DNA of 64,000 nucleotides from Eledone cirrhosa (lineage: Eukaryota): assembly GCA_964016885.1 (NCBI GenBank), contig OZ024746.1, forward strand, positions 91,946,001-92,010,000, in the 5' to 3' direction. Below the pieces are notes generated by a model. That model did no database searches and was not told the origin of the DNA. It saw only the letters and a list, made by a program, of their open reading frames with translations. Position numbers and translations under genes: made by a program. Each line of letters begins with the position of its first letter. Position 1 is the first letter of the stretch. Positions 1 to 63,100 of this stretch are shown in pieces.

Positions 1-1067
1 AACATTTAGTAGGAAGCATTTGATATCGATAACACTGGCTTCATTGAAAATTAATACAGAAAAATGTGAGCTAAAAAAATTCTTAATGCCTTCATGAATA
101 CTTCAGAAATAATTCTTAAATCACATGAAAATATCTACAGGGGATATTTATTGTAGTTTTGCACCTTCGTGCCGTCTGGGGAGATTGTGCCCCACGATAA
201 TTCGGAAAACTGGTTCTTCTAATAGACTGATTTCTATGTAGAAAAGGAAATATATAATTAAATTGAAGCCTAAACTGACACAATACTACTTTCACATCAA
301 CTAGATCTTCCTTACCGTTCCTCCTAATTTTGTTTTTACTTTTCTTTTTCATTTTTATAACATCTTCATTTTCTCTTTTAATCTAAACATTTCTCTGTTT
401 TATTGTCTTATTTCCTAATAAACTCCAATTAATATTTTAAAAATCGGTAAATACAAGAATAAGGAGGACACGAAAATATAAGAAATGCTGGTGAAATTAA
501 GGCTGGTGAAACAGTGTATTGTGGCTGCTGGAGGGGGATCCATTAGCATTGAAGTTGTTGCTTTCGGGTGAAAGGGATAATATGTGCTACTGTATCAAAT
601 ATCTACGCTTCAATAAAGGAAGTAGTGTGTGTAAAATGATACAGAATAGAAATTTATGGGTGGTAATTTCTGTTTGCTCTTTAGAGAAGTATTGCGATGG
701 TTCTATCGCTTCAACAAACATTGTTTCTTCCGGCTGAAGGAGAGAACTTACTTGGATGGAACATTCTTTTCCAACGGAATGATAATTCAGGAAGTTAATC
801 TCGGATTCAGCATTTGAGAATCTCAGAAGCAAATTTAGCTACATTGTTTACGGCAAATTTGTTCTCTTTCCTAGCCTAATCGACATATGAAACACTATAT
901 AAATATTTCTTGTTCATTTTAGTTTTCTCGTTTTTTTTTCTTTTTTATATTTAAATCCCTACATCACATTTTTACTTTCGTAAATGCTTCTTATCTTAAT
1001 AATCCCTCAGCGCCCTCATCTTTACATAGTAATCACTAAAGTTCAATCCCCTCTTAAGACTAAACTT

Positions 1068-1230
<163 letters not shown>

Positions 1231-1320
1231 ACGTATGCAAAAGGCAAACAGAAATAACAAACGACTCAGTTCAATAAAGAAATATATTAGTTTTACGTTT
1301 GATATAGTAGGAAAATAGTC

Positions 1321-1360
1321 TGTCTTAACGTTTCGGACATTAGTCGTTCATCAGAACATA
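1321..1360 (-). ncRNA. Minimal type I hammerhead ribozyme motif (Penelope pLTR-like), slightly degenerate
   Basis: Minus strand reads TGTT-CTGATGA-A-cGAC-taat-GTCc-GAAA-CGTT-AA-GACA: conserved core, short stem II, palindromic AACGTT helix III. Confidence 0.55.
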
Positions 1361-1469
1361 GAATGAAGAATTAAAGAAGAAATAGAAATATTAAGACGGG
1401 CAGGGCGGAAAACATATTTTTAGAGAAAAATAACAGGTCCATTGATGTTGCCATTTCTTGAAAAACTGT

Positions 1470-1690
1470 TGATGTCTCAGGAAAGAATCACTGAATAGAT
1501 TTTACAGACAAAATCAATCGGCAGGAGACCCGGAGGGTAGACCCCGAGCAAGATAGTTGGATAATATCTATGAGCTTGGCAGGTCATTCTTGGGGATCCA
1601 GCCGGATCGATTGAAGACGGTTGCATCTGACACGCTGGACAGAGTGTTTGAGGACTCGGTTCTCATGATCCTTCTAGGAATAAGTGCATG
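1470..1690 (+). mobile_element. 3' end fragment of an RTE-clade LINE
   Basis: Homologous by eye to the minus-strand copies at 21525-21935, 38430-38975 and 62640-62780. Confidence 0.7.
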
Positions 1691-1840
<150 letters not shown>

Positions 1841-2389
1841 AACAAATTACTTTGCTTTTCTTCTTAAACTCTTTTTTTAAATAAGACATTGAAGGTGATG
1901 TGAAAAATATTGAACTTCTGGTGAACTTTTTGGGGTGGAATTTTACTGGGGCGGATATTTCTATTGCCTACTCCAAGCCTATCTGTACAAAAATGGTGGT
2001 TCTAGCGTTTTGTGTTTTCCATTGAAAGGCTTAACTTCTGTTTCTTTAATGTTAACCTCCTTAAATGAGTTGCTTTCTCTTCTATATTCCTTTCCATCTA
2101 CCAGCAATCTATATCCGTTTTAGAGCAGGAAAGGGTTTGATGTCAGCATCACAAACTAATGAAACGCGACAAGCATTAAAAAAGTTAGCCAGAAATATAT
2201 TTATAATGTGAGTACAAAAAACAAAATAATGTTAGTCGATGACTTATTTTTTAATGTTATTTTAGCAACTACGGGAGACAACTTCAAACATGTTCTGATC
2301 ATATTATGACCTCATCAATGAAGCTTAAACTTCATTGTTCTTGCTGGAGTAGTAATTAATCAATAAGTATCTAAACATTATTGTACACA

Positions 2390-2555
2390 GTTACGCCCCT
2401 TTATGATCTGAGTTCAAATCCTGCCGAGGTTAACTTTGCTTTTCATCCTTATGGGGTCGATAAAATAAAGTACCAGTCTCGCACTGAAGTCGATTTAATC
2501 GACTTTCCCCTCTGCCCCAATTTATGGTCTTGTGCCTATATAAGAAACCATTATT
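2390..2555 (+). mobile_element. tRNA-derived SINE, family A (Meta-domain-like core), 5'-truncated
   Basis: B box GAGTTCAAATCC followed by CTTTTCATCCTTATGGGGTCGATAAAATAAAGTACCAG, shared with many copies in the window. Confidence 0.85.
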
Positions 2556-2719
2556 CTACACAGTATTGTACATAAAAGCGTAAACTTGTTTAGAGTGATA
2601 AACTACGTTGATTACTCTGCGACCGCTACTCGCACGAGCTTTGATCGAACAGTTCTATGATCAAAGACGTTTCAATCATACCCATCACATCTATTTGTTT
2701 TAGAAAGACATGTCACCAT

Positions 2720-3766
2720 CTTTAGATCATTTAATTGACTAGTGATACCGATTAAAAATTCCAAACGGCATAAATATTTTTGGTTCTCTAATCCATTATA
2801 AGAATACCTTTACCATTCTTGAAAACTTCCAGCTCATCTTCCGTTTCTTAACAAACCTCACAGTAGTACAATATATTGCCATAATCAACTTCGGGATCCT
2901 TCAAAATCCCTTTAAATTCCCTGTTGACCAATCCCTTATTTTATAAAGTTAATACACTTTCGTCTCATTGTACATTTTTACAAAATGAAAGCACGTTTTG
3001 TTGGTAAAGAAGCAATGGTAGACTATTCAGGTATTAGAACCCAGTTGGCAGATTTTCAATTCTTTCTTGATGAAAGAAACAAATATTTTTTGAGAATTTA
3101 TTATAGATAGAGCACCATCCGAAACTACACCACAAAGGTGCAGAGTAAATCAAATCTCTTCTTGTTTATTTAACTTAAGAAATATTCACATCTGATAGTC
3201 CCATCTATCAATTTTAAAACAAGTAAACTTTACAGTTATCCCCCTTACCAATATAATCAACAGTGCTGTAATTACCATTTCTCTTGTCCCATCTACAGCT
3301 ATTGGATACGAATACAACAAATTCCTATGTTGGTTATTTTCAGTACTATTAGTCATATTAGAAATTGGTCAGGCATTGTTCTTTCTAATAAACTAATATT
3401 CTCAAAGATTCTGATAGTTTTTCAGGCAGCAGCAACTGAAATAATCTTTAACGAATTTGCCTTCACAGTATAATTTAATTTTTTTAATTAACACACACAA
3501 TCTATAAGTTGCTTGCGTTCCGGAAGTAATTTCATTTAATGTTTCATGGAAATAAACTGTTCTTTTCAGAAAGATGTTTTTTAAATGCTAGCTTGCCTAA
3601 ACACTTCATTTGCTTAGTCAAATAGCAGTGTTTAAGTTTGTAATTTTTTATAAACTGTTAATAACTAAAAATCACTTTCCATTTACTTCTATGAAAAAAA
3701 AAATCTATTTGTTCATTTGAATAAAATCATTATTGCCGGTAACTTTCTTTTATTGGAAACAGCCAT
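2720..3766 (-). pseudogene. Decayed hAT-superfamily transposase (Charlie/SPIN/GTF2IRD2-like)
   Basis: Manual minus-strand translation gives colinear motifs: MAVSNKRK..FFFIEVNGK, QATYRLCVLI..EGKFVKD, IAVDGTRE..LIILVRGI (cf. DESTD), GVVSDGALSI (cf. TDGAPSM), IVYHCFF (cf. HCIIHQ), KGLVNREFKGILKDPEVDYGNILYYCEV. Many stops and frameshifts. Confidence 0.85.
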
Positions 3767-4593
3767 TACAAAAATGATTACTTTTATATAATTTACATTA
3801 GTTTAAAGATATTTAATAAACATAAGTAAATAAACCACTAAATTTTAATTGTTTGTTACAAATGCCTTATGGTATTTAGTTAAGTCCATTTACGTTCCAA
3901 GTCCAAATGTCAGTGGGGTCAAATTTGCCTTTCATCCTTTTGTGATTGTTGTTGTTTATAGCCAAGTCTATGATCTAACAGAATTATGTTCAAAGGCGTT
4001 GCAGCCGTAACTCGTAGTTTGAGGGAATTTGGATGCTATTTCTAGCAAGTTCGAGCCCTCATATAGAACATTTCTTAAAATAAGTACCATCCACATAACG
4101 AGGTCGGTAAAATTAACTGCTGCCATTCCTCGTCAAAATATGTGACCATGTCCCAATGTCAGAAATCATTGATATATATCGTAAACATTTCGTCAAAACT
4201 ATACAAATATGATCGCCATAACAACTAGTATTACAACCACAGGATTATGAGAGGAGCGTCTACGTGGATATTCGACTTCCTAAAAATAGCAGCCAAATCT
4301 CTCTCAAACCACACACACTATATATATATCAACATGATCATCATGGCAACTACTATTATGAGACGAAATTCGACGTGGTTAATCCACCTGCTTGAAATAA
4401 TATCCCAATTTACCTCAAACCACTCATTTACCACTCTATAAACATACAAGCTCGATTGTCCTACGTAGAATTCCAGAAAAAACGACAACATTGCAAAGTC
4501 TGCAATTATCTTTGATCGTATATCTGTCTTGTCTCTCAGAGTTAATCAGAGACTGAATGACACCACCACCACCAACACTACCACCACCACCTT

Positions 4594-4742
4594 GTACAAC
4601 AGAACACTCTAACGACAGCCAAGTCTCGTACAACAGAGCACGCTATTTAACTACAGCCAAGTCTCGTTCAACAGAACACTCTATCTAACTACAGCCAAGT
4701 CTCGTACAACAGAACACTCTAACTACAGCTAAGTCTCGTACA
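4594..4742. repeat. Four-copy 34/38-bp tandem repeat
   Basis: Unit GTACAACAGAACACTCTA(TCTA)ACTACAGCCAAGTCTC. Confidence 0.9.
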
Positions 4743-4903
4743 TATATATATATAATATTGCCAGAAATAATTACAGAGCACACTCACTGTTTGGTTGGTT
4801 TTCGCTTCTGTATCTTTTATATCTCCATAGTTAATTTATTTGGCAATCAACGTTTAGCATTGATTGACCAACGGTTAAAAATACAGATATGAATATATAT
4901 AGT

Positions 4904-4949
4904 CTATCAAAGTTCTTTCGTTGCACATCTGCAACATCATCAGTGGTAC
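4904..4949 (-). ncRNA. Minimal hammerhead ribozyme motif within a pLTR-like element (about 4755-4960)
   Basis: Minus: gtacca-CTGATGA-T-GTTGCA-gatg-TGCAAC-GAAA-GAAC-T-T-tgatag; perfect 6-bp stem II, partly decayed stem I; flanks resemble the 53703-53850 element. Confidence 0.65.
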
Positions 4950-6732
4950 TATTATGTTTCCTCCTGTTGTAGTGTATATCTACGCCATTTCACTCCATAT
5001 GCTACATGGCTTTCACTCCACATGCTACGTAAAGTATTGGCAAAAGTGTTAGTGTATTTAAAGGGAGTGATCTGTGTAATACTGATCTTTGACAAATATT
5101 AAAACCCTATTAAAATATTTGACAATTCATATTATGAGGTATACCTCTGTGATCATGTAGTTCCCAGCCACCATAGTGTTTTCACCCATGATAATCAGAG
5201 ACAGATCTGATACATCTGACGATAGCTTATCTGATTTTAATATAAAGTGCTCCTAGTTCAGGACCCCTCCCCCCTTCATGTGGTGCCCATGGCACGTGCC
5301 ATGCTCTAGATACGTCTCTGCTCACAAGCTATTAGAGTGTAGTCTTTCAATTTAACCAATCATACATTTCACCTCTGAGGTAAAACTATGGAGCCTCTAG
5401 TGGTCGTCAAACCTGCTAGAAATATCAGCTAAACCTCATTGAAATAACTCCCAACTATCTTTAAGAGAAATGAAATGGCATATTAGATAAGGTAGTTCTA
5501 GATACACCATGTTTGAAAATAAAGCTCCTGTTACTCTTTATCTACTTAATTATGATTTCACTGAGGTTACACAACGACACAAACAACGGTAGATGAACAT
5601 TATCTAATTGAGGTGACATGCGGTTGAAATAATGGAGAAATAATATGGTGCTATCAAGAACAAGTCATTAATATATTCTTTGACTGTAAATTGTCTGTAG
5701 ACGTTAGGATATCATTTTAATATTTATCTTTTATTTGGGGCATTTAGAATATTAAACTAATTATGTGTTCGTTATGAGAAAGTCGTTCTTTTTATCTTCC
5801 TTGTAACAAGTTCTAAGTAAATTTTCCATGATACCAGTTCGTCTCAAGTAGCATGCTCTACGTTTAACATTTGAAGACGATGTCGGAAGACTAAATGATT
5901 CTGTGAGTATTTATTTGAGCATCATGAAAGAATCTCATTTACAATTTATCGCAGACATATGAAATGTTGAAAATGTGATTATTCTAACTTATCAGAATAT
6001 TGCAATACACAACCAAAACTTTGAATTGTATCTAAAGCCCCAACAAGAATATAATTATTTTGAGAGCAAAGGAAATTAATTATTAAATCCAACCAATGGA
6101 ATTAAATCAAAATATTAGCTAGTGGTAACAATTCAGTTTACAAAAGATGATAATTACACAGACAACTTTGCTTTATTCAGTCTTTTAATGGAAACATGCG
6201 AATTTAATTAAAAAGTGAGAAACGCTGTCAATTCTAGATGTTTGGTGAAATAATTGTTAACTTTGATGATACCCGCAGAAATAAACTATCAAATGCTGAT
6301 AGTAATTAATAACCCGAAATATTTATCAATTTGGCTATTGTAGGATTTTTCCAGCTTGAAGCAAAATTCTGAAATATCGAACCATATTTCAAATTGTTGC
6401 CAATTCTTTGTTTGTTTTGGGTTTTGGTTTTTAATTATCTTAATTAAAAGTTAATGAAATATTAATTTTTCTCACGCGTGTGAAATAAAGAGAAACATCA
6501 AATATCTGTATATTATTCTATTTCACAATTCTTACCGTTATCCATCAATTGGATACTTTCATTAATCAAGTTCATGACATTTTAATAAGATTTCTTCCAC
6601 TATCGTGGTGTCACGAGTTGTGTACTGCCTGTAGAGGTTTTACACGTGACTGTGAATTATTCTCAAAGAACACATATGTACATAATTGAAACTGTACATA
6701 CACATGCAGACACGCACACATACACACACATG

Positions 6733-6779
<47 letters not shown>

Positions 6780-6790
6780 TACATTATAAT

Positions 6791-6834
6791 TTGATTTACA
6801 ATTGTTTCTTCCTCGTGGGGCTCATCCGAATCAA
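6791..6834 (-). ncRNA. Degenerate hammerhead motif next to (TA)n
   Basis: Minus: TTGATT-CGGATGA-gcccc-acga-ggaa-GAAA-CAATTG-T-A-AATCAA; perfect 6-bp stem I, palindromic helix III, one core substitution. Confidence 0.5.
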
Positions 6835-7057
6835 TCATTTTATAAATAAATACATCAAAGATCATCGTTTCGAACGTATAAAAGTCCATAGATTTTGGTT
6901 ACATTTTACAAAACTGCATGAGTATATATATATATATATATATAAACATATAAACACACACAAACGTTTGTCTGTCTGTATGTGTCTGTATATATGTGTA
7001 TGTCTATATGTGTATGTATGTATATATGTATGTGTGTGTATGTATGTATACATGTGT

Positions 7058-7134
<77 letters not shown>

Positions 7135-7193
7135 CGTATGTTAGGAGAGAACAAGCTGAAACCGCAATGCAAGCGGTCGGGGTTCTAACTCTT

Positions 7194-7253
<60 letters not shown>

Positions 7254-7276
7254 TGATTGTAAAGCGAACCTCTTAA

Positions 7277-7318
<42 letters not shown>

Positions 7319-7330
7319 ACACACGCACAT

Positions 7331-7590
7331 CAGTGGCGAAGGGTAACCTGGAAAGCAGGGCATGCAGTCCAATCGCCGAAAGTGGGGCTGTGCAGCCTTA
7401 CCCCCCCCCCTCAATTCCCTCTAAATTCCCTCTAAATAACCCTCCCGGTCAAAGTTATCTAATGTGTGTGTGTGTGTTATCTTTTTATGTGTCTATACGT
7501 TTTAGTAAGCAGCCAAAATTCTGCTTGCTTCAACGGACGCAATTGATCAACTCAAGATTCTATAACGCATGCACGGACCCTTCGCCCCTG
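7331..7590. mobile_element. hAT-like MITE inserted in a (CA)n tract
   Basis: 14-bp TIRs CAGTGGCGAAGGGT / ACCCTTCGCCCCTG (1 mismatch); imperfect 8-bp flanks ACGCACAT/ACACACAC. Confidence 0.7.
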
Positions 7591-7624
7591 ACACACACAC
7601 ATTTATACATAAATAACTATATGC

Positions 7625-7657
<33 letters not shown>

Positions 7658-8337
7658 CAAATATAAATTAGCGAGAATAGTATTTCGGCTTAGGAATTAA
7701 CGAAAAACAACTTCCGAGATGTGTGGCAAGCGCTCAATGATTCAGATGAACCAGAGCTACAACATACGTTAAAGGCCAAACACACTGAGACGATATTTTT
7801 CAATATTCTTTTAAATATTTTTTTTTTTATATTTTCTCAAGATTAATAACCGCTAACTGATTCTGGCTAAATGTATCTTAAACATCCATACTTATTTTGA
7901 CTAAATAGTCTCACACTAACGAATAAATAAATAAAACCGGAGTTTTTTTCTTTATCTTCCCTTTTCAATCATATAAATATAAATATTCTTACTTAACTCA
8001 GTTAATTTAATTTAATTTAATTTAATTTAATTTTAAATCATTCTCAATTTTAAATACATATTTATTTACATAAAATACAAAACCAATATCCCTCATAACT
8101 CATTAGAACAACTATCTATAACATGATATACCCATCTATTTATTTATTTATTTATTTATTTATCTACTTATAACAGAAGAAAAATATTATATTATAAACA
8201 AATTTTAAACAACTAATAATCGTAAAATATCCCTTTAATATATATATTTACATATATACATAGATAATTGTTCGAATATATTTCCCACAAATTAACGTTA
8301 TATGAGTTTTTTTACTCATCTTCGCTTTTTTCCTTCT

Positions 8338-8411
<74 letters not shown>

Positions 8412-8587
8412 ATTTTGTCCTTCTCTTGTCTCTTCTCTCTCCCCATAGTCGTTTAAATAAACAGTTGTTTTTCAATTATTTACATATTCATTTGCATATT
8501 CACCCATAAGTTTGAAAAATCCCTAATACATTTCCACTATCCAGAGAATATCCAACTGATAAGGTATGATTTTCCTGGGTATGTCTC

Positions 8588-8807
8588 TATTTATAAAACA
8601 AACTTTGTATTTTATCTGAAGAAAGCGTATCAAAGTGTTTTGGTACCCTTGAAATATATATAATAAAATAAATATGGTTTTATAAATATAGTTTCCATTT
8701 ATTTAATATCATTGAATATTTACTCCAGGAACTTGTTGAGTGCTCTAAATCAGTTATAAGCATTTATATTTGTCGGATTTCCAACAAATTAAATACCCCT
8801 CCTACTT
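8588..8807 (+). mobile_element. About 220-bp hammerhead-bearing short element ending at (TA)n, copy 1
   Basis: Aligns over its whole length with the reverse complement of 53360-53578. Confidence 0.85.
8608..8670 (+). ncRNA. Complete type I hammerhead ribozyme motif
   Basis: TATTTTAT-CTGAAGA-AAGcGTATCAAA-gtgt-TTTGGTACcCTT-GAAA-TATATA-T-A^ATAAAATA; 8-bp stem I, long stem II, palindromic helix III, AUA cleavage triplet. Confidence 0.8.
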
Positions 8808-8851
8808 ATATATATATATAAACAGACATCTGCACACACAAACATACATAG

Positions 8852-8942
<91 letters not shown>

Positions 8943-9569
8943 TATACACGTGTGTGTGTGTGAGCGTGAGTCGCTTAAAATACTGTAGTATTTAAAATAT
9001 TCAAACATTAATTGATTTTTCATTGAATAATTATAAATAAATATATGGTAATAGTTACTATAAAAGAAACAGCGTCTTTGAAATGGTTGCATCTTGTTGG
9101 TTTTCAAATAATCTACAGCAGATGTTTTATCTTTTGTTGTCATTTCGGACAGTTATCGTAAACTTCAGACGTTATTACAACAAAGTTAAAACACTGAAAA
9201 TCTGGAACATTCTTTTCTGATAAAATCCTTTGATCTCACATTTGTGCCACTATAATCTTTACTGCTTACTTATGTGTTGAGTCATTATATTTTCATTACA
9301 TATTATCAACTTCTACTTTATCTCTGGTAGTAATTCCAATTTTTCTTTATCTTAGTATTCGTTACTGCCGCTGCTTATTTATTACAAAGCTCATTAACTT
9401 TCCTATTTTAACCCTTTCGTTTAGTATATTTTTAACGAAAGACACTGCCATGGTTTCCAAACCGTAATTGTCAAAGAGAATCAATGACAAAATCTGTGAG
9501 GATGTTAAACCTTTTGAACAGTAAGTGTAATCCATCTGAATGTGTGAACAGTCACCTCTCCTGTTCATT

Positions 9570-9920
9570 ATTTTTTTATGAACAGGACTGACATGCGCAA
9601 CCGGGTTGGAAGTGGTATCATGATTGGCAAGTGTAGAATCAGTCGGCTGGAATTTGCAGACGACATGGTGTTACTTAACTCGACAAAGATTCGTCCTCTC
9701 AAGGAAGCCTGCGCAGTGCAATCTACATGTGAATAGAGTTCCACTGAAGCTGGTAGAGACGTTCAAGTATCTCTGTGTCATGTTCACGAGTGATGGAAGG
9801 CAAAAGCTGAATTACATGCAAGAATTACAGGAGCTGGTATACTAATGTGCCAGTTTCAGCATTCGGTAATCAGAAGAAGGGAGGTAAGTTTAAAAGCCAA
9901 ACTTGCTATCGTTAATTTCG
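9570..9920 (+). mobile_element. RTE-like reverse transcriptase fragment
   Basis: Translates to ..GIMIGKCRISRLEFADDMVLL.. and VETFKYL. Confidence 0.7.
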
Positions 9921-9929
9921 TTCATAACT

Positions 9930-10360
9930 TGTCCGTCTAGTAATTCAATTCCTTCCATCTCATCATCCCTACCTCACTTCAGTAGTAGCACCCAACACTT
10001 ATTTATGCCAAATTCCATTCCTATGTCCGTACTGAATGTATGAACTGTCTGTACAAGGGAATCAATCTGTTCACAGGATTTCCCATAAAGCTTTAGGTCA
10101 TCCATGAACAGCAAGTGGTTTATCTTAAACTCACATCCCCACTTGTACCCAGCCTTTGACCTTCTCAACACTAATGAAAGTGGAATCATACACAGTACAA
10201 ACAGCAAAGGTGAAAGACTCTCCCTGAAATATTCCTCTCTTAATCTTCACAACTCCCAATGTTTGTCTGCATGATGTCAGCTCAGTCTTCCAACCTCACC
10301 AGAATACTGCTCACCAGAAACTGTCTAACGTTAGCTGCAATATCAAACATTTCCAAACAA
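9930..10360 (-). mobile_element. R4-clade LINE reverse transcriptase fragment
   Basis: ORF 9974-10207: LFVLCMIPLSLVL..INHLLFMDDLKLYGK..DIGMEFGINKC. Confidence 0.85.
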
Positions 10361-10375
10361 TAATAACAACAACAA

Positions 10376-10420
<45 letters not shown>

Positions 10421-10421
<1 letters not shown>

Positions 10422-11262
10422 TGCATTTATCTTGCTTTATGTTTATACGAGTTATCACCAAGTCACAACCAGTGACCTCAAGAGACAACAAGGTCCGCCA
10501 TGTTCAAGAAAGAACACACATATTCACACATGCATCCTTAGTGTTTAGACTTGTGATGTACTTATATTGACAGGATCTTCCTTAGTATATGGGCAGTTCC
10601 CATTAGTACTATCTTTTGTATTTCTCCTATACGCGGGTTTCCTGGGATTTGCGATAAGTAATCATTAGACCCCTTAGGTATCATTCCCAGAGCGCCTACA
10701 ACCACTGGTATTGTTTTAGTTCTCAATTTCCACATTTTTCCAATTTCTATCTCCAGGTCTTTATACTTGCTCAATTTTTCAAATGTTTTTATAGATACAT
10801 TCTTGTCTATTGGAACAGACATATCAATTAGCAGGCATACCCTCCTTTGAAAGTCCTTCAATATTATATCAGGTCTATTTGCATCTATTTTTCGGTCTGT
10901 TTGGATGCTAAAGTTCCACAAGATTGAGATGTGATCTTTTTCAAGTATGGGAGGTGGTTGATGCTCCCACCAATTCTTTTGATGGGGCAGGTCAAAATGC
11001 TTACACATTATCCAATGTATGTATTGTGCAGCTCTGTCATGCCTGTTTAGGTATTCGGTTGGAGCTATAGGACTGCACATTGAAATTATATGGTCAATGG
11101 TCTCTGGTTGTTTTTTGCATACACGGCATAATGGGCTGCACCCATTTTTTATTATGTTGGCTTGGTAATTTTTTGTTGGCAGACACTGATCTTGTGCTGA
11201 TATAATCAGTCCTTCAGTCTCCGATTTCAGTCCAGAGGATGCCAACCACTGATGGGTTAAAG

Positions 11263-11265
<3 letters not shown>
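10421..11265 (-). mobile_element. 5'-truncated R4/Dong-like LINE (family A) with an open CCHC + RLE endonuclease frame and 3' UTR
   Basis: ORF 10562-11245: CRVC..ETIDHIISMC, RHD, NRPDII..IDMSVP..EKLSKYKDL; (TAA)n on both sides. Confidence 0.92.
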
Positions 11266-11355
<90 letters not shown>

Positions 11356-11356
<1 letters not shown>

Positions 11357-11678
11357 CTTGAATCTCAGTCATTGATGTTGGTTAACTGGAAAGTCCGTTG
11401 GATTGAATATCAAGCCACTACCTGCAGCCTCAGATATTCAAGACGTATCGGAGGGTTCTTGCCGTTCCAAGCAAGCATGCCTTTTGAAGCGTTCCAAAAA
11501 GCGTGAAGGGGCCGATTTTCTTTAACCATCCCTGGAAACCTTTGGAGATAGTCCCCAGTGCGCCTATGACAATCGGGATCACTTTGACTTCATGGCAGTT
11601 CCAAATCCTTTTCACCTCCCACTTTAGGTCCTGGTATCGGTTAATTTTCTCCCTCTCCTTCTCTTGCACTCTCGTGCA

Positions 11679-11679
<1 letters not shown>
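11356..11679 (-). mobile_element. Short 5'-truncated R4/Dong-like LINE (family B)
   Basis: ORF 11430-11669: EREKINRYQDLKWE..IPIVIGALG; 3' UTR shared with 11738-12309; (TAA)n flanks. Confidence 0.9.
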
Positions 11680-11726
<47 letters not shown>

Positions 11727-11737
11727 GTTGTTGTTGT

Positions 11738-12309
11738 TCTTTGAGTCTCAGTCATTGATGTTATTTAACTGGAAAGTTTGTTGAAATGAATATCAAGCCG
11801 CTACCTGCAGCCTCAGAGATTCAGGCCGTATCGGAGGGTTCTTGTTGTTCCCAGCAAGCATGCCTTTTGAAGTGTTCTAAAAAGCGGGGCTGGACTAATC
11901 TTCTTTAACCATCCTTGGAAACTCTTTGAGATAGTACCTAGTGCACCTATGACAATCGGGACGACCTTGATTGCATGGCAGTTCCAAATCCTTTTTAACT
12001 CCCACTTTAAATCCTGGTATCGGTTAATTTTCTTCCTCTCCCTTTCTTGCACTCTCGTGTCAAATAGGCAGGTTACATCTACAATCAGGCACCATCTTTT
12101 TTCCTTGTCCAAAATCACCAGGTCAGGCCTATTGTGTTCTAATTTCTTGTCTGTCTGTATCCTAAAATCCCACAACACCTTCACCTGATCGTTTTCTATC
12201 ACCGACTCTGGCTTATGCTCATACCACTTCTCAGAATGTGGTAAATTGTTTAGTTTGCATAGATGCCAGTGGATCACCCTGCCTATCACATCATGTCTCC
12301 AGCCTTTAT
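11738..12309 (-). mobile_element. 5'-truncated R4/Dong-like LINE (family B variant), RLE domain
   Basis: RHDVIGRVIHW..HNRPDLVILDK..IVDVTC..KINRYQDL; (TAA)n flanks. Confidence 0.92.
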
Positions 12310-12340
12310 AGTTATTATTATTATTATTGTTATTATTATT

Positions 12341-13396
12341 TTCTTTCATCATTGTTTCTGAGATATATGCCGAGTGTCTTCCTGACACCTAGGGAAAATA
12401 AATTCACAATGTGCATTGGTAAGCCAGTTAATACAGAACATTGATTGTAATTTAAAAAAAAAAACAAAAAAAACAGAAAAAAATAGTATACATATATACA
12501 CATGTGCATATGCATATGTAAATAATACAAGGAGGGTTATCAATCTTACAGAGATAGTGCTCTTCTCAATACGTGTGCAGTACCAGTCATAACAATTTTT
12601 TGCACCTCGTGCAGAGAGGGTAAACCAGGAACCATTCGCAAATATTGTTCTGTTCCTTTCTTGATCATTCCCAGTCCTCCCACAATCACTGGTATTGTAA
12701 CGGCCTTGAGGTGCCACATTTTCTCAATTTCAATAAGCAGATCTTTATATTTTCGTAGCCTGTCAAATTCTTTTGCCGTGATATTGTGATCACATGGGAT
12801 GCTCATATCTATCAACAAACAGACCTTGTTATGTTGATCTTTTATAATGATGTCAGGTCTATTTCCTTTTATGGTCCTGTCAGTATGTACAGGAAAGTCC
12901 CAGAGAATTGTTACTTTTTCTCCTTCAGCTACAGCCTCAGGGTGATGGTTGTACCACTTGTCTTCAGCTTTGATTTTGTAATGCCGACATATTACCCAGT
13001 GTAGATATTGACCAACTCTGTCATGTCTATATTTGTATTCTACTGGTGCTAAAACTTTACATCCAGAGACTAAGTGATCCACTGTTTCAACCCCAGCATT
13101 GCAGAATCGGCACTTTGGGTTTATTCCGTTTCTCATCACATTGACCTGGCAATTACGAGTCAATAAGCTTTGGTCTTGGGCAGCTAAGATGAAGCCTTCA
13201 CTCTCCGCCTTTAGCCCTGAACTACGTAGCCACTGATGGGTGTGCTTTTGGTCAACTTCAGCTTGTTTTCTACGGGCCACATATTTGCCATGCAGAGGTT
13301 TCTGCTCCCAATTTGATGCTAATTGTCCTTGCCCTTTTGCTTTTGCCAGGGATTTTATGTGCCTAGCAGCATCAATTGCAGCAGTTTCTTTAGTCT
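12341..13396 (-). mobile_element. 5'-truncated R4/Dong-like LINE (family C) with an open CCHC + RLE frame
   Basis: ORF 12546-13280, open upstream to about 13396 (WEQKPLHGKY): CRFC..ETVDHLVSGC, RHD, NRPDII..IDMSIP. Confidence 0.92.
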
Positions 13397-13460
13397 GTCA
13401 AAATGCTTACACATTATCCAATGTATGTATTGTGCAGCTCTGTCATCTCTGTCATGCCTG

Positions 13461-13526
<66 letters not shown>

Positions 13527-13964
13527 GATTAATTGATTGTTTGTTCAAACGAACGGATGTCTATGTCAGAGCTTTGTGAAAATGTAATTTTTTAACCGGA
13601 TTAACTCATGATAAAATAACTGCTGCTGTTTGTTCCAGTATTACTAACAAAAAGGCTTTCGGGTTGTTTGAGAGTCCATTACCTGGAGTGAAAGAAAGAT
13701 TTATCTTTAGATATTTTTAATTGCCTATAATTATTTGTATTGTTATTGTTGTTTAAAAATGGCATCGGGAGTTGCAGTAAGAAGTGTTTGCTACAGTACC
13801 GCCAGAAATAGTCTCAATAACCCAAACAAATGCGACTCCCAATTATTTTCAAATTCGAAAATAGATTTAAACAGACGACAATGAATAACCAAGCAATAGA
13901 GAACTTTACCAGAATGGAGGTCAACGAAAGGAGCAACGTTTGATAACATTTTAAAGGAACACAA

Positions 13965-15672
13965 ACAGCAACAATACTACCACCACCACCACCACAACAA
14001 CAACTACCACCTCAACAACTACCACAATAACAACTATCACCACAACACTACCATCACAACAGCACCAACAATACTACCACCATACCAACAATACTGCCAC
14101 CACAACAACAATACTACCACCACAACAACAACCATACTACCACCACAATACTACCACCACAAAAGCAACAATACTACCACCACAATAGCACCAACAATAC
14201 TACCACCACCACAATACTACCACCACAACAGCAACAATACTACCACCACAACAACAACAATACTACCACCACAATAACAACAATACTACCACCACAACAA
14301 CAACAATACTACCACCACAATAACAACAATACTACCACCACAACAACAACAATACTACCACCACAATAACAACAATACTACCACCACAATAACAACAATA
14401 CTACCACCACAATAACAACAATACTACCACCACAACAACAACAATACTACCACCACAATAACAACAATACTACCACCACCACAACAACAATACTACCACC
14501 ACAATAACAACAATACTACCACCACAACAACAACAATACTACCACCACAAAAGCAACAATACTACCACCACAACAGCACCAACGATACTACCACCACCAC
14601 AATACTACCACCACAACAGCAACAATACTACCACCACAATAACAACAATACTACCACCACAACAACAACAATACTACCACCACAATAACAACAATACTAC
14701 CACCACAACAACAACAATACTACCACCACAATAACAACAATACTACCACCACAACAACAACAATACTACCACCACAATAACAACAATACTACCACCACAA
14801 CAACAACGATACTACCACCACAATAACAACAATACTACCACCACAACAACAACAATACTACCACCACAATAACAACAATACTACCACCACAACAACAACA
14901 ATACTACCACCACAAAAGCAACAATACTACCACCACAACAGCACCAACGATACTACCACCACCACAACAACAATACTACCACTACAATACTACCACCACA
15001 ACAGCAACAATACTACCACCACAACAATAACAATACTTCCACGACCACAACAACAATACTACCACCACAATACTACCACCACAACAACAACAATACTACC
15101 ACCACAACACCAACAATACTACCACCACAACAGTAACGATACTACCACCACCACAACAACAATACTACCACCACCACAACAACCATACTACCACCACAAC
15201 AACTACCACCACAACAACAACCATACTACCACCACAACATACTACCACCACAACAACTACCACCACCATACTACCAACACAACAACTACCACCACCATAC
15301 TACCACCATAACAACAACAATACTATCACCACAACAACAACCATACTACCACCACAACAACAACAACCATACTACCACCACAACAACTACCTCCACAACA
15401 ACTACCATCACCTTACTACCTCCACAACAACTACCACCACAACAACTACCACCACCACAACAACTACCACCACCTTACTACCTCCACAACAACAACTACC
15501 ACCACAACAACTACCACCACCATACTACCTCCACAACAACAACTACCACCACCATACTACCTCCACAACAACAACTACCACCGCAACAACTACCACCACC
15601 ATACTACCTCCACAACAACAACTACCACCACCATACTACCTCCACAACAACAACTACCACCTCCACAAGAAC
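13965..15672. repeat. C/A-rich minisatellite with a 23-bp core unit, degenerating at both ends
   Basis: Unit ACTACCACCACAA(C/T)AACAACAAT. Confidence 0.9.
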
Positions 15673-16495
15673 TACACACACACACACATATATACACAGA
15701 TACACACGCACAGATATAAGCAGATACACACACACAGATATATACACAGATATACACACACAGATATACACAGATATACACACACAGATATATACACAGA
15801 TACACACACACACAGATATAAGCAGATACACACACACAGATATATACACAGATACACACACAGAGATATAAGCAGATACACACACAGATATAAGCAGATA
15901 TACACACACAGATATATACAGGTACACACACACATATATACACAGATACACACGCACAGATATAAGCAGATACACACACACAGATATATACACAGATACA
16001 CACACACATATATATACAGATACACACACACAGATATAAGCAGATACACGCACACAGATATAAGCAGATATACACACACAGGTATACACAGATACACACA
16101 TACAGATATATACACAGATACACACACACAGATATATACAGATACACACACACAGATATATACACAGATACACACACACATATATAAACAGATATACACA
16201 CAGATACACACACACAGATATAAGCAGATATAGACACAGATATATACAGATATACACACACACAGATATAAGCAGATATACACACACAGATATAAGCAGA
16301 TATACACACACAGATATATACAGATATACACACACAGGTATACACACACACAGATACACACACACACAGATACACACACACACACACACACACACACAGA
16401 TACACACACACACACAGATATACACACACACAGTTACATACACACACATAGATACACAGATACACGCACACACACAAATACACACACACACAGAT
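15673..16495. repeat. Cryptic (CA)n-GATA(TA) compound repeat
   Basis: Recurrent CAGATA separated by variable CA/TA runs. Confidence 0.9.
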
Positions 16496-16815: not shown

Positions 16816-16817
16816 AA

Positions 16818-18262
16818 TTACACAGAGTAGTTCTGACTTTATACTAACCTAGTAATAGTATTACATAGAGAAGTTCTGTCTTTATTCTAACCTAGTAATA
16901 GTATTACACAGAGAAGTTCTGTCTTTATTCTAACCTGGTAATAGTATTACACAGAGTAGTTTTGTCTTTATTCTAACCTAGTAATAGTATTACACAGAGA
17001 AGTTCTGTCTTTATTCTAACCTAGTAATAGTATTACACAAAGTAGTTCTGTCTTTATTCTAACCTAGTAATAGTATTACACAGAGAAGTTCAGTTTTTAT
17101 ACTAACCTAGTAATAGTATTACACAGAGTAGTTCTGTCTTTATTCTAACCTAGTAATAGTATTACACAGAGTAGTTCTGTCTTTATTCTAACCTAGTAAT
17201 AGTATTACACAGAGAAGTTCTGTCTTTATTCTAACCTAGTAATAGTATTACACAGAGAAGTTCTGTCTTTATTCTAACCTAGTAATAGTATTACACAGAG
17301 TAGTTCTGTCTTTATTCTAACCTAGTAATAGTATTACACAGAGAAGTTCTGTCTTTATTCTAACCTAGTAATAGTATTATACAGAGAAGTTGTCTTTATT
17401 CTAACCTAGTAATAGTATTACACAGAGTAGTTCTGTCTTTATTCTAACCTAGTAATAGTATTACACAGAGTAGTTCTGTCTTTATTCTAACCTAGTAATA
17501 GTATTACACAGAGTAGTTCTGTCTTTATTCTAACCTAGTAATAGTATTACACAGAGAAGTTCTGTCTTTATTCTAACCTAGTAATAGTATTACACAGAGT
17601 AGTTCTGTCTTTATTCTAACCTAGTAATAGTATTACACAGAGAAGTTCTGTCTTTATTCTAACCTAGTAATAGTATTACACAGAGAAGTTGTCTTTATTC
17701 TAACCTAGTAATAGTATTACACAGAGTAGTTCTGTCTTTATTCTAACCTAGTAATAGTATTACACAGAGTAGTTCTGTCTTTATTCTAACCTAGTAATAG
17801 TATTACACAGAGTAGTTCTGTCTTTATTCTAACCTAGTAATAGTATTACACAGAGTAGTTCTGTCTTTATTCTAACCTAGTAATAGTATTACACAGAGAA
17901 GTTCTGTCTTCATTCTAACCTAGTAATAGTATTACACGAGAAGTTCTGTCTTTATTCTAACCTAGTAATAGTATTACACAGAGTAGTTCTGTCTTTATTC
18001 TAACCTAGTAATAGTATTACACAAAGTAGTTCTGTCTTTATTCTAACCTAGTAATAGTATTACACAGAGTAGTTCTGTCTTTATTCTAACCTAGTAATAG
18101 TATTACACAGAGTAGTTCTGTCTTTATTCTAACCTAGTAATAGTATTACACAGAGTAGTTCTGTCTTTATTCTAACCTAGTAATAGTATTACACAGAGTA
18201 GTTCTGTCTTTATTCTAACCTAGTAATGACACAGGTTAGTTGTGTCTTTATTTTAACCTAGC
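16818..18262. repeat. 43-bp minisatellite, about 33 copies
   Basis: Unit TACACAGAG(T/A)AGTTCTGTCTTTATTCTAACCTAGTAATAGTAT. Confidence 0.97.
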
Positions 18263-18794: not shown

Positions 18795-20910
18795 TGTGTG
18801 AGAGTTAGAGAGAGTGAGAGAGAGTGTGTGTTGGGATGTGGGAGAGTGGTAGAGAGTATGTGTGTGTATGTGGGAGAGTGGTAGAGAGAGTGTGTGTATG
18901 TGTGAGAGTGGCAGAGAGAGTGTGTGTTGGGATATGGGAGAGTGGTAGAGAGAGTGTGTGTATGTGTGAGAGTGGTAGAGAGAGTGTGTGTTGGGATGTG
19001 GGAGAGTGGTAGAGAGTGTGTGTGTGTATGTGGGAGAGTGGTAGAGAGAGTGTGTGTTGGGATGTGGGAGAGTGGCAGAGAGAGTGTGTGTTGGGATGTG
19101 GGAGAGTGGTAGAGAGAGTGTGTGTATGTTGGAGAGTAGTAGAGAGAGTGTGTGTTGGGATGTGGGAGAGTGGTAGAGAGAGTGTGTGTTGGGATGTGGG
19201 AGAGTGGCAGAGAGTGTGTGTGTTGGGATGTGGGAGAGTGGTAGAGAGAGTGTGTGTTGGGATGTGGGAGAGTGGTAGAGAGTGTGTGTGTTGGGATGTG
19301 GGAGAGTGGTAGAGAGAGTGTGTGTTGGGATGTGGGAGAGTGGCAGAGAGAGTGTGTATTGGGATGTGGGAGAGTGGTAGAGAGAGTGTGTGTTGGGATG
19401 TGGGAGAGTGGTAGAGAGAGTGTGTGTATGTGGGAGAGTGGTAGAGAGAGTGTGTGTTGGGATGTGGGAGAGTGGTAGAGAGAGTGTGTGTTGGGATGTG
19501 GGAGAGTGGTAGAGAGAGTGTGTGTTGGGATGTGGGAGAGTGGCAGAGAGAGTGTGTGTTGGGATGTGGGAGAGTGGTAGAGAGAGTGTGTGTTGGGGTG
19601 TGGGAGAGTGGTAGTGAGAGTGTGTGTGTATGTGGGAGAGTGGTAGAGAGAGTGTGTGTGTATGTGGGAGAGTGGTAGAGAGAGTGTGTGTTGGGATGTG
19701 GGAGAGTAGTAGAGAGAGTGTGTGTTGGGATGTGGGAGAGTAGTAGAGAGAGTGTGTGTTGGGATGTGGGAGAGTGGTAGAGAGAGTGTGTGTTGGGATA
19801 TGGGAGAGTGGTAGAGTGAGTGTGTGTTGGGATCTGGGAGAGTGGTAGAAAGAGTGTGTGTATGTGGGAGAGTGGTAGAGAGAGTGTGTGTGTATGTGGG
19901 AGAGTGGTAGAGAGAGTGTGTGTTGGGATGTGGGAGAGTGGTAGAGAGAGTGTGTGTATGTTGGAGAGTAGTAGAGAGAGTGTGTGTATGTGGGAGAGTG
20001 GTAGAGAGAGTGTGTGTTGGGATGTGGGAGAGTGGCAGAGAGAGTGTGTGTTGGGATGTGGGAGAGTGGTAGAGAGAGTGTGTGTATGTGTGAGAGTGGC
20101 AGAGAGAATGTGTGTTGGGATGTGGGAGAGTGGTAGAGAGAGTGTGTGTTAGGATGTGGGAGAGTGGCAGAGAGAGTGTGTGTATGTTGGAGAGTAGTAA
20201 AGAGAGTGTGTGTTGGGATGTGGGAGAGTGGTAGAGAGAGTGTGTGTATGTTGGAGAGTAGTAGAGAGAGTGTGTGTTGGGATGTGGGAGAGTGGTAGAG
20301 AGAGTGTGTGTTGGGATGTGGGAGAGTGGTAGAGAGAGTGTGTGTTGGGATGTGGGAGAGTGGTAGAGAGAGTGTGTGTTGGGATGTGGGAGAGTGGTAG
20401 AGAGAGTGTGTGTATGTGGGAGAGTGGTAGAGAGAGTGTGTGTGTATGTGGGAGAGTGGTAGAGAGAGTGTGTGTTGGGATGTGGGAGAGTGGTAGAGAG
20501 AGTGTGTGTATGTTGGAGAGTAGTAGAGAGAGTGTGTGTTGGGATGTGGGAGAGTGGTAGAGAGAGTGTGTGTATGTGGGAGAGTGGTAGAGAGAGTGTG
20601 TGTTGGGATGTGGGAGAGTGGTAGAGAGAGTGTGTGTATGTGGGAGAGTTGTAGAGAGTGTGTGTGTGTATGTGGGAGAGTGGTAGAGAGAGTGTGCGTT
20701 GGGATGTGGGAGAGTGGTAGAGAGAGTGTGTGTGTGTATGTAGGAGAGTGGTAGAGAGAGTGTGTGTGTATGTAGGAGAGTGGTAGAGAGAGTGTGTGTG
20801 TATGTGGGAGAGTGGTAGAGAGAGTGTGTGTGTATGTGGGAGAGTGGTAGAGAGAGTGTGTGTGTATGTGGGAGAGTGGTAGAGAGAGTGTGTGTATGTA
20901 GGAGAGTGGT
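18795..20910. repeat. G-rich 30-34-bp minisatellite
   Basis: Unit GATGTGGGAGAGTGGTAGAGAGAGTGTGTGTTGG and shorter TATGTGGG variants. Confidence 0.95.
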
Positions 20911-23086: not shown

Positions 23087-23559
23087 TTCTTCTTCTTCTT
23101 CGAATCTTCATCCCTGCCGAAGGGACGTTTGAGAAATGTAATGTATTTACGCCATTTTCTTTTCTCTGTTTATGTTTTACACGGTCCATTTACTTAGAAT
23201 CCAAGCTTTCAATTTTATTCGTTAACTCTGTCAGACCCTCAAAAACAATCTTCTTGTATTTAAACTCTGATTACTGTTATACGTTCATTTATAGGTTTAG
23301 ATTTTAAAAGATAACCTTCTCGTTAACTTCCCCATACCCGCCCCCACTTGCCACCATTATTAGATGGTCCAATCATAATTCAGCGGCTTATACGTCTCTC
23401 TTACCAATCTCTTACACAAAACCACCGCCTCGGCTATTCACTCCTTAAGTTTAAACCTGGTTGCCTTTTATATGCTAGATGGACTGTGGGATTCTGGAGA
23501 GAGTACGAAGAATCTGGATACTCAAATGACAATGTCAAAGATAAAGATAAATTCACCTC

Positions 23560-26500
23560 ATGTGGCCGGACGAAAATGCAAGGATTCCTCTTTATTTCAG
23601 ACGCGGATGGCAAACATAACCCCATCTCCCTCACCCCTCCCTACACCTTCCACCCATCAAACGAAATCCAAAACTTCAGAGTTGGTACCATGAATGTAGG
23701 CACTTTAAAAGGTCGTTCAAATGAGGTTGTAGAGATGCTTGAACGTAAGGAAGTTGATGCTTGTTACGTCCAAGAGACTAGGTGGAGGGGTGGGTCTGCT
23801 AGATTCATTGTGGGTAAAAAACGATGCTATAAACTGTTCTGGGTGGGAAATGAAAATGGGCTGGGTGGTGTAGGAATTATGTTAGTAGAAAAATGGGTAG
23901 ATAAGGTAATTGACGTAAATAGAGTGAACGACAGAATAATCAAAATAAGACTTGTCCTAAATAGAACTACTGTGACAATAATATCCGCTTACGCACCCCA
24001 ATCTGGACTGCCTGGCGTTATAAAAGACAGATTCGCTAATGCTCACTACCTTCCAACAAACCGACAGTGACTACATAATTATTGCTGGCGACCTAAATAG
24101 TCATGTTGGACAACATTGTGACGGCTATGACGGAATCCATAGAGGCTTCGGGTTTAATACCAGAAATGAGGAAGGCTTCAGAATTCTTGAATTCTGTGAC
24201 GCAAATAACCTAACAATCTGCAACACAAACTTAAAAAAACGAGACAATCACTTGATCATCCATAGATCAGGGGAACACGCCAGTCAGATAGATTATATCC
24301 TTACCAGAAGACGTGACAAAGTGTCGGTTGTAAATACTAACCCCCCCCCCCCCTCGCGAAGAATGCACCTCCCAACATAGCCTCATAGTTGCTGACCTCA
24401 TACTCAGGATGAGACGTACTCGACAACAGAGGAGGACCACCCTGAGAAGAAGAATATGGAAGTTAAAGACCCCACACCCAGTAACAAATTTAAAAGCATA
24501 TTACTTGATGCTTTTGACAGTAAGGAAGAGCAATTAGAGACGTACAGTATAGAGGAACAGTGGGAATTACTGAAGTTAACCTGCTGAAGGCGACAGATGA
24601 AATCTGTGGCTGGAGCAGACCTATAGGTAGGAGGAGAGTAACATGGTTGTGGAACAGTAAGGTGGAGGAGTCAGTCAAGGCCAAAAAGCAAGCTTGGAAA
24701 GAATGGCGAGATAGGGGAAGTGGAGAACACAATCAAGTGGCTAGGAGGGAAGCTAGGAGACAAGTGTACCTTGCAAGAGGGGAAGCAGAGGAAAGAAAGT
24801 TCAAGCATGTTCTACAATGTGAGGACCAAAAACGTGAGGTGTTCAGGATTGCTAGACAATGTGTCAAGGAAAAACCGTGATATTGTCGGGGAGAAGTGTG
24901 TCCGTAATGATGATGGTATACTTGCCATCACTGATACTGATAAGAAGGTAGCTTGGAAGTGTCACTACGAGAGGCTACTAAATGAGGAGAATAAGTGGGA
25001 AAAAGATAGTCTGCCCCAAATCGATCCAATAGAGGGACCAGCGGTGCAAGTTAAAGGTAGTATAATATGTAAGGCAATAAGATATGAAGACAGGCAAAGC
25101 AGCTGGGCCTTCGGAGATAGTTGCTGAAATGCTGAAAGCATCTGGAATGGTGGGACACACTATGGTTCCCTGGATAGTAAACCAAGTCATACAGAATGGG
25201 GTCATGCCAAATGACTGGTGTAGCAGCATCATCATTAACTGCTACAAGGGTAAAGGAGATGCCCTAGATAGGGGAAACTATAGAGGCATTAAATTAATTA
25301 ACCAGGTCATGAAGGTCACAGAAAAAGTTATAGCGCAACTAATCAGAGAGCGAATTGATCTAGATGAAATGCAGTTTGGGTTTGTGTCAGGTAAAAGTAC
25401 CACGGATGCTCTCTTCTTTGTACGGCAACTACAGCAAGTACCTAGCTAAAAGTAAACCCCTATACTTAGCTTTTGTTGACTTGGAGAAAGCCTTTGAGTC
25501 CCCCACTCCATTATCTGGTGGGCTCTTAGAAAACTGGGTGTAGATGAATGGCTTGTGAGAGCTATACAAGCCATGTATAAAGAAACAGTCAGCAAGGTTA
25601 GAATTAACAACGAATATAGTGAAGAATTTAGCGTAAAAGTTGGTGTTCATCAGGGCTCTGTGCTTAGCTCCTTCCTATTTATTATTGCCCTTCAGGCTAT
25701 AACAGAAGAGTTCAAGACCGGCTGCCCATGGGAACTTCTATACGCAGATGATAAACGCGCATAACTGAATCAATGGCTAACTAGAGAAGAAATTCCAAAC
25801 TTGGAAGCATGGCCTAGAATCAAAAGGCCTTAAAATTAACTTGTCTAAGACTAAAGTTCTAGTGTGTAGGAAGGAAAATAGGGCACTGGTCCCATCTGGG
25901 AAATGGCCATGCTCAGTCTGTAGGAAAGGAGTAGGCAGAAACTCCATTTTATGTCCCAAATGCAAAGTATGGGTACATAAAAGATGTAGTGGGATCACAG
26001 GTAAACTAACTAAGAACATAGATTTTATATGTGGCCGGTGCTCAGTTGCAATAAGTAGTAGCAAGTCCCCACAGGATACTAGCACCTTCCATTGCCCAGA
26101 TGGTTCTATAGAAATAATGGACACCTTCCGTTACCTGGGTGACAAAATCAGTAGTGGTGGAGGGTGCTCCGAAAGTACTGTAGCTAGAGTCAGAACGGAT
26201 GGAAAAAGTTCAGAGAGCTTATACCACTATTGGCCGCTAAAGGTTCCTCCCTAAAAATGAAAGGCAGACTGTATGATGCCTGCATACGAACAGCAATGTT
26301 ACATGGCAGTGAGACATGGGCATTGTGTGCAGAGGATCTGCGCAGACTGGAGAGGAACGAAGCTTACATGCTCCGTCGGATGTGTAATAGTAATATACGT
26401 GAACAGCAAAGCATAAATGAACTAAGTGAGAAATTAGGAAATAGAGGGATCAGATGCTGTTTACTCGAGAGAAGACTACGTTGGTATGGTCACGTGATGC

Positions 26501-27066
26501 TCATGAAAGACGACAGCTGTATAAAAAAAGTACAGAGCGATCAAAATAGATGGAAGCTATGGAGTAGGCAGACCCAGAAAAACCTGGGACGATTTGATAA
26601 ATTCCGACCTTACACACTTACACCTCTCCAAGACAATGTCACTGGACCGAGATCTTTGGCGCTACGCAGTAATACAGAAAACCCGCCTTGCCTAAGTACA
26701 AAGCGAAACCTACAGTCAGTAGGCACCTCCTAACCAAAAATATACCCCATCCCACTACCCCTACTCCACCCCATCTACACCACCCCTTTCTCTGTAAAGT
26801 TATGTTGGTACCACAACATGAATAAATGAGGTCGTGTAGGTGTCACGACAAAAAAAAACACAGTCCACGCTGTAATGTGGCCGTGTAGGTAACACGGTAA
26901 AAACCTCCCAGTCCACACTGTAAACGTGGTTGGTGTTAGGAAGGGCATCCAGCCGTAGAAAACCCGCCAGACAGTCCTATACGAGCAAGACAACCAATCT
27001 TGGCTCACGTGGGACAATTCCCGTCTAAACCCATGCTAGCGTGGAAGATAGACGTTAAACGACGAC

Positions 27067-41189: not shown

Positions 41190-41580
41190 ATTGTGGATTG
41201 GCAGTATCGGTAGAGGGTCGGACGCCATGCTTTCCAGCATAGTTACGTCCCTTTATGATCTGAGTTCAAATCCCGCCGAGGTTGACTTTGCCTTTCATCC
41301 TTACGGGGTCGATAAAATAAAGTACCAGTAATGCACTGGGTAATTGCTGGCCTTGTGCCTAAAGTAGAAACAATTATTATGCAGTATCGGTAGAGAGTCG
41401 GACGCCATGCTTTGATGCATAGAGTTACGGCCCTTGCCATTCTGAGTTCAAATCCCGCCGAGGTTAACTTTGCCTTTCATCCTTACGGGGTCGATAAAAT
41501 AAAGTACCAGTAATGCACTGAATAATTGCTGGCCTTGTGCCAAAAAGTAGAAACAATTATTATTATTATTATTGTTACTA
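41190..41580 (+). mobile_element. Head-to-tail SINE family A dimer with (ATT)n tail
   Basis: Two copies (41190-41378, 41380-41560) with different diagnostic bases upstream of the B box. Confidence 0.9.
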
Positions 41581-41689
41581 TTATTATTACTTTTTTTTTT
41601 TTTTTTTTTTTCCCCCAATTCAATGATGTTCCAGAACAATATAAAAGCGATAATTGGCAATTTAGGTTCTGGAACAAAAAAGATAATTG

Positions 41690-42520: not shown

Positions 42521-42755
42521 TTTGTCCTCTCACTAAACCCACTACCATACCTGCTCACAAAACAAAGTGGTCATGGAGGTGGGTCCAGAAATATCTCCCA
42601 TCTTTTCTTTGTTGATGACCTGAAATTGTATGGGCCAAATATCAACTATATTAAAAAACAATTGGGCCTCATTACACAATTTTCTGCAGACATCAGAATG
42701 AATTTGATGAGTCCAAATGTGCATATTTGACAGTAAAACGTGGGAGGGTTGTGCC
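42521..42755 (+). mobile_element. R4-clade RT fragment joined directly to the RTE endonuclease
   Basis: FVLSLNPL..ISHLFFVDDLKLYG..QFSADIRM..KCAYLTVKRG. Confidence 0.8.

Positions 42756-63044: not shown

Positions 63045-63100
<56 letters not shown>

Follow-up and report, generated by a model that had tools for sequence, protein, structure and literature searches.

A pile of truncated Dong-like LINE copies linked by TAA runs in the genome of Eledone cirrhosa

How did the 3' ends of several LINE families come to lie side by side on one strand of the Eledone cirrhosa genome, with little but TAA repeats between them, and does the array serve its host? The question was raised by a locus in a window of 64,000 nucleotides (the whole stretch analysed, contig OZ024746.1, positions 91,946,001 to 92,010,000; positions below are those of the window), which the original prediction read as a landing pad that renews itself with every insertion. 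In all likelihood dead copies of four Dong-like LINE families, all 5'-truncated, have piled up at this locus as one target-primed insertion after another entered a TAA run, and the pile has no function of its own.

Composition of the locus

Five TAA-type runs (10377-10421, 11264-11355, 11679-11726, 12312-12340 and 13462-13531) were delimited from the sequence and with Tandem Repeats Finder. Between them lay four minus-strand units, A, B, B' and C, each with a stop-free C-terminal frame and a 3' UTR (Table 1). The four were co-oriented, separated by (TAA)n alone and 5'-truncated as judged against longer genomic copies: B retained the 3'-terminal 320 of 3489 bases, B' 577 of 3474 and C 1057 of 4280, while A corresponded to the last 844 of the 4934 bases of a full-length genomic copy. 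The predicted layout (TAA)n-A-(TAA)n-B-(TAA)n-B'-(TAA)n-C-(TAA)n was thus correct in its runs, units, strand and truncation, but had overlooked a small internal piece of family A beyond C. Amino-acid identities were 54 % for A/C, 39 % for A/B' and 34 % for C/B', against 83 % for B/B'; with 34-54 % between families, A, B/B' and C are by sequence three families, as had been proposed.

Table 1 Features of the stack and of the adjoining family D fragment
Positions	Strand	Feature	Basis
9914..10359	-	Family D: old RT-region fragment, both ends truncated, frame broken	RVT_1 E 4e-8
10356..10421	-	Tail of unit A, (TAA)15, then short opposite-polarity run (AAC/AAT on +) next to D	
10422..11263	-	Unit A: 5'-truncated 3' end, 233-aa open frame (CCHC + RLE), 140-bp 3' UTR	sequence, alignment
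11264..11355	-	(TAA)30 spacer: B tail / A 5' flank	
11356..11678	-	Unit B (young subfamily B2): end of ORF and 3' UTR	sequence, genome matches
11679..11735	-	(CAA)3(TAA)16 spacer: B' tail / B 5' flank	
11736..12311	-	Unit B' (older subfamily B1): 165-166-aa open frame, RLE without CCHC, 3' UTR	alignment
12312..12340	-	(TAA)~10 spacer with one CAA variant: C tail / B' 5' flank	
12341..13396	-	Unit C: 283-aa open frame (CCHC + RLE), ~205-bp 3' UTR	alignment
13397..13461	-	65-bp internal family-A piece (RHD region), 9-bp tandem duplication	sequence comparison
13462..13531	-	(TAA)23: outermost 5' run	

The protein alignment of A and C contained the CCHC, RHD, RPD..D and K..KY.DL motifs. An RLE or CCHC plus RLE frame had been expected in every unit. 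A and C carried both domains and B' the RLE without CCHC, but the 81-82-aa frame of B forms the ORF's C-terminal end and lies wholly downstream of the RPD..D catalytic motif, thus B is not a whole RLE. The R4 RT fragment reported alongside was recovered, as a remnant of a fourth, older family, D; stops and frameshifts interrupt its frame, and an opposite-polarity repeat run connects it with the A tail. It was 87 % identical to a genomic D copy and at most 90 % identical to its best genome matches (best 40 of 272). The whole locus comprises six pieces from four related families (A, B/B', C and D). An Rfam search of the region yielded sub-threshold matches to AT repeats only.

The array might instead be a product of misassembly, of duplication in place or of TAA runs recombining with each other. 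B and B' register as a 383-bp tandem repeat in Tandem Repeats Finder, and a stack elsewhere (L097) with two A units of equal length suggests that units may be duplicated. Short-read contigs and RAD reads with the same species label covered both unique flanks and all units, and none of them spanned the stack. Yet the units differ in family and age, both unique flanks were at ordinary depth in run X1, and B shared 99.7 % identity with copies from other contigs against 87 % with B'. B therefore belongs to a younger subfamily and inserted separately, its origin as a tandem duplicate of B' was rejected, and an array made by duplication or misassembly is very unlikely.

Two truncation points recurred in the genome. 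B (at 11661-11691) and a copy on a different contig (L131, C7:91186088) had the same 5' truncation point with two extra bases, and five A copies had the 5' junction of unit A in common. Re-copying of truncated units was considered and set aside, as the second B copy has none of the variants of the B unit in the window and, with so many copies, several should share any given truncation point. Other features of the window were a decayed APE-type LINE (23327-26730, +), an APE endonuclease frame beginning at a (TTA)n run (41551-42612, +; E 5e-12), a distant RLE-type 3' end with 25-27 % identity to A and C (51180-52067, +), an open frame after (TAA)17 (63048-63348, +) and minisatellite arrays with units of 23, 24, 43, 34 and 28 bases (13964-16495, 16817-18261, 18810-20895 and 30320-32177), of which the array at 13964 begins 430 bases from the stack.

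Families, ages and order of insertion

Candidate relatives were abundant in the 3.0 Gb of the animal's own genome, with at least 4457 for B', at least 2162 for C, at least 1582 for A, at least 272 for D and at least 196 for B; these counts are lower bounds, and the best 40 were scored per query. Three of the seven A loci examined (L094, L095 and L096) held an intact ORF of 1216 aa with an RVT_1 match (E 1.5e-26), and its closest solved structures were R2 proteins (PDB, residues 449-1162, E 2e-26). Family A is very young, with intact copies elsewhere. For family B2 a 1078-aa frame was present in L278. The aligned motifs of family A gave the layout of an RLE-type non-LTR element, a single long ORF with RT, then CCHC, then a C-terminal RLE. 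A comparison set of 116 other copies, 29 per query after the window's own match was dropped, showed a fixed 3' end, varied 5' truncation and, in 113 copies, a simple-repeat TAA tail. The Dong/R4 clade is alike in its frequent 5' truncation and in the CCHC knuckle spacing and the single-ORF layout (RT, CCHC, C-terminal RLE) given in passages of PMC5678591. The label Dong-like rests on architecture and target rather than on an RT tree with named references. Named Dong or R4 proteins were absent among the matches listed (120 of 1131 relatives, E<=1e-30), and the Atlas matches are unnamed. Excerpts of PMC3774820 place Dong in the R4 lineage and describe a 5' ribozyme that cleaves Dong from the upstream TAA repeats; a search of L094, L278 and L108 for an HDV-like 5' ribozyme gave nothing in Rfam at E<=0.05, and the window units are without 5' ends.

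Family A also appeared under other organism labels: runs X4, X7, X8 and X9 contained it over 10434-11253, with 5-9 differences per 700-820 bases (~99 % identity), in thin coverage and without the unique flanks, and in X9 A and C occurred at very high depth with little of B. Trace host DNA, a close relative and horizontal transfer are all possible sources.

Age was measured by comparing 310 units and averaging, for each, the distances to its three closest relatives among them. On this scale A was 0.28 % old, B 0.31 %, C 3.7 %, B' 3.9 % and D 9.5 %. Focal copies had been chosen as those most similar to the units in the window, a choice that biases the ages and the intact-frame counts. The proposed age check by divergence, with a tenfold spread between A and B (~0.3 %) and B' and C (3.7-3.9 %), indicates separate insertions and excludes a single concatemeric insertion for the whole stack. 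We infer that D is the oldest piece, that C and B' followed, and that B and A are recent arrivals 3' of B'.

R2 reverse transcriptases are capable of template jumping. If the enzyme ran off one RNA onto the (UAA)n end of another, one or two such events could have linked C to B', B to A and the A piece to C as head-to-tail concatemers. This would be in keeping with the similar ages within each of the two pairs and with the junction of the A piece, where 3 bp common to both partners, and no TAA, mark the join with C. The tenfold age gap between the pairs, however, rules out one event for the whole stack, and across the genome 52 of 61 adjacent pairs differed in age by more than 0.5 points. The A piece moreover matches current young A copies except for its duplication, while C is 3.7 % old, a comparison over ~50 bases that has little power. 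Template jumping is quite improbable as the origin of the stack. With separate insertions as the preferred reading, the A piece was probably a further insertion 5' of C, whose 3' end a short-homology deletion later removed. A chimeric A/C subfamily was discarded, as the junction was found nowhere else (best 40 of 412 candidates).

Had insertions been recorded in sequence, a consistent age order would be expected along the stacks. The 61 distinct co-oriented adjacent pairs, three of them from the window and subject to the same bias towards young copies, had an older upstream unit in 19 cases, a younger one in 33 and a tie in 9 (p=0.07). Without age polarity over these pairs, the old-to-young order C, B', B, A at this locus is no rule, and piles grow on both sides. 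The view of the stack as a repeat-spacer-like record of active families did not survive this comparison. CRISPR-type arrays receive new units at one end, which creates an age order. The stack shares with them the foreign-looking pieces between repeats, but its spacers and repeats vary in length, its pieces insert themselves and are without polar age order, and no host acquisition or processing genes were seen.

TAA targeting and the frequency of stacks

The assumption that Dong-like LINEs target (TAA)n was well founded. Besides the tails, a TAA run was found at 46 of the 65 visible 5' ends in the comparison set (A 10/11, B2 13/13, B1 16/28, C 7/13), and thus at the 5' junction of 23 of 24 young-family copies with a visible 5' end. 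In R2-class target-primed reverse transcription, a nick primes copying from the 3' end of the RNA. By analogy, the RLE of a full-length copy would nick one fixed strand of (TAA)n, and reverse transcription would begin at the RNA 3' end and end early, leaving a 5'-truncated copy with TAA on both sides. Either run would be reusable, so that piles would grow both ways with all units on one strand.

The neighbourhoods of the copies agree with the claim that each independent insertion splits and renews the target, with TAA at both junctions and several families involved. A further Dong unit lay directly behind the tail in 30 of 116 copies and directly in front in 16 of 65, and all 46 of these neighbours were co-oriented, none opposite. 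Three opposite-strand adjacencies were noted: two rows trace to a single A copy with an inverted 5' part, and the other is an old C piece, inverted, on the far side of a TA run. Chains of at least three units occurred at 8 distinct sites among the comparison loci, and other stacks of four or more units were L005, L097 (rows L013 and L014 of the comparison set are this one stack), L142, L144, L279/L107/L278, a five-unit, three-family stack including near-full-length copies, and L246. A 5'-inverted family-A copy lies within the five-unit stack (L107:1039-1445). Four successive family-A units, two of them both 1040 bases long, were found at L097:4936-9632; the equal lengths reflect either a unit duplicated when TAA runs recombined or an artefact of the assembly.

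An unbiased sample was drawn from 120 evenly spaced 10-kb regions (1.2 Mb) of contigs C1-C6, with C7, C8, C28 and part of C6 outside. It contained 72 TAA runs of at least 4 repeat units and 13 Dong units in 9 clusters, making up 1.6 % of the bases, with one four-unit stack (L246) that had a short passenger element between two units. Extrapolation with Poisson limits, the unsampled contigs being assumed alike, gave ~17,000-55,000 Dong units and 60-14,000 four-unit stacks in the genome. The neighbour rate per junction was 0.26 (CI 0.19-0.35), against 0.0005 expected under uniform placement. Target-limited models that assume 70 or 30 sites in 1.2 Mb gave 0.09-0.19 without renewal (Poisson) and 0.16-0.30 with renewal, in which every insertion creates one more target, thus the observed rate fits a targeting of long TAA runs. 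A Dong 5' end followed none of the 53 TAA runs of 4-9 units and 6 of the 19 longer ones. Long Dong tails were followed by a Dong unit in 3 of 5 cases and other long runs in 3 of 14, a difference that hints at additional clustering but falls short of significance. Renewal of the target is plausible and slightly favoured, and with 13 units in 9 clusters it is inseparable from run-length effects. Stacking of Dong units is the norm in this genome. The proposed count of stacks, far above uniform chance and within simple TAA-target-limited models, describes a passive hotspot as far as this could be tested.

Other repeats share the TAA neighbourhood. A very abundant element of 190 bp (41193-41558 and 61160-61723 in the window, 188 copies in the 1.2-Mb sample) occurs in tandem between TAA runs and adjoined Dong units downstream in 16 of 116 and upstream in 17 of 65 cases; full-length A copies also contain a piece of it in their 5' region. 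At L095:1900-2480, L099, L103, L110 and L145 the TAA runs upstream of Dong copies adjoin the end of a second repeat, near which RT-like frames lie on the opposite strand.

The (TAA)n target is common to Dong of the silkworm (Bombyx mori), DongAg of the mosquito Anopheles gambiae and DongBg of the snail Biomphalaria glabrata, as stated in passages of PMC3812793, and the TAA-Dong 5' junction is given in excerpts of PMC3774820. Unlike in those hosts, four families and an estimated tens of thousands of copies share one target here, and multi-family piles form as a result. Our literature search, which had the original 1993 and 2004 Dong papers and supplements outside its scope, found no published multi-family Dong piles. 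Among coleoids, parts of PMC13282606 report 5 Dong-R4 families with 1129 recent insertions in Octopus vulgaris and its relatives, and parts of PMC8967140 Dong-R4 expansions in octopus and squid. These elements likewise comprise several recently active families, a likeness taken from their descriptions, and the passages concerned do not mention TAA targeting or stacks.

Open frames and significance of the piles

Four open frames, two of them (A and C) with CCHC and RLE motifs, and three families sampled in 3.1 kb could suggest that the stack has been co-opted as a transcribed sampler of active families, giving rise to silencing small RNAs or RT-less nucleases. The corresponding stretch was, however, intact in many other copies (A 29/29, B 22/28, B' 19/29, C 8/29), so that the joint chance of finding all four frames open was ~0.14; the comparison copies were the closest matches and may favour intact ones. 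Private changes in the window units were 12 replacement and 2 silent for B' (ratio 1.6) and 10 and 3 for C (0.91), similar to the ratios of 0.73 (B') and 0.88 (C) in the pooled other copies, while A (0/1) and B (0/0) are too young to judge selection. The open frames reflect the youth of the copies, and the changes are neutral decay, as far as testable the outcome that the original prediction had named for a passive hotspot. Purifying selection after insertion, as for a domesticated nuclease, was not found in B' and C, and the suggestion of preserved RT-less nucleases is not supported. B without the catalytic motif, B' without CCHC, units without the element 5' end, the missing age order and the frequency of similar stacks likewise speak against co-option, which we regard as highly implausible.

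It is very improbable, too, that TAA-linked stacks act as self-growing samplers of every active Dong family, with host read-through on the opposite strand yielding multi-family antisense RNA that feeds piRNA silencing. If it were true, the targeting habit of the elements would build their own traps.

Tandem arrays are known from other target-specific non-LTR elements, such as HeT-A/TART/TAHRE and SART/TRAS, and from Alu in A-rich tails. Such arrays come to be co-oriented since an insertion either spares the target or makes it anew. The stacks described here differ in that the target is a dispersed microsatellite, growth is two-sided and there is no host role like telomere upkeep. The literature search gave no useful precedent for tandem Alu. 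Tandem arrays of Utopia/U2 elements are co-oriented as well, according to a figure legend in PMC4640811.

The stack is real, explained and ordinary, and carries no sign of function. In itself it is of little importance, as it follows from the published TAA-targeting habit of Dong; greater importance would arise only if small-RNA or selection data revealed a use by the host. Such piles probably number hundreds to thousands in this genome. As a class they form a natural data set on microsatellite-targeting LINEs that multiply their own target. The nesting of units in them could order the bursts of the families, and the young intact A and B copies are usable for studying how an RLE LINE recognises TAA.
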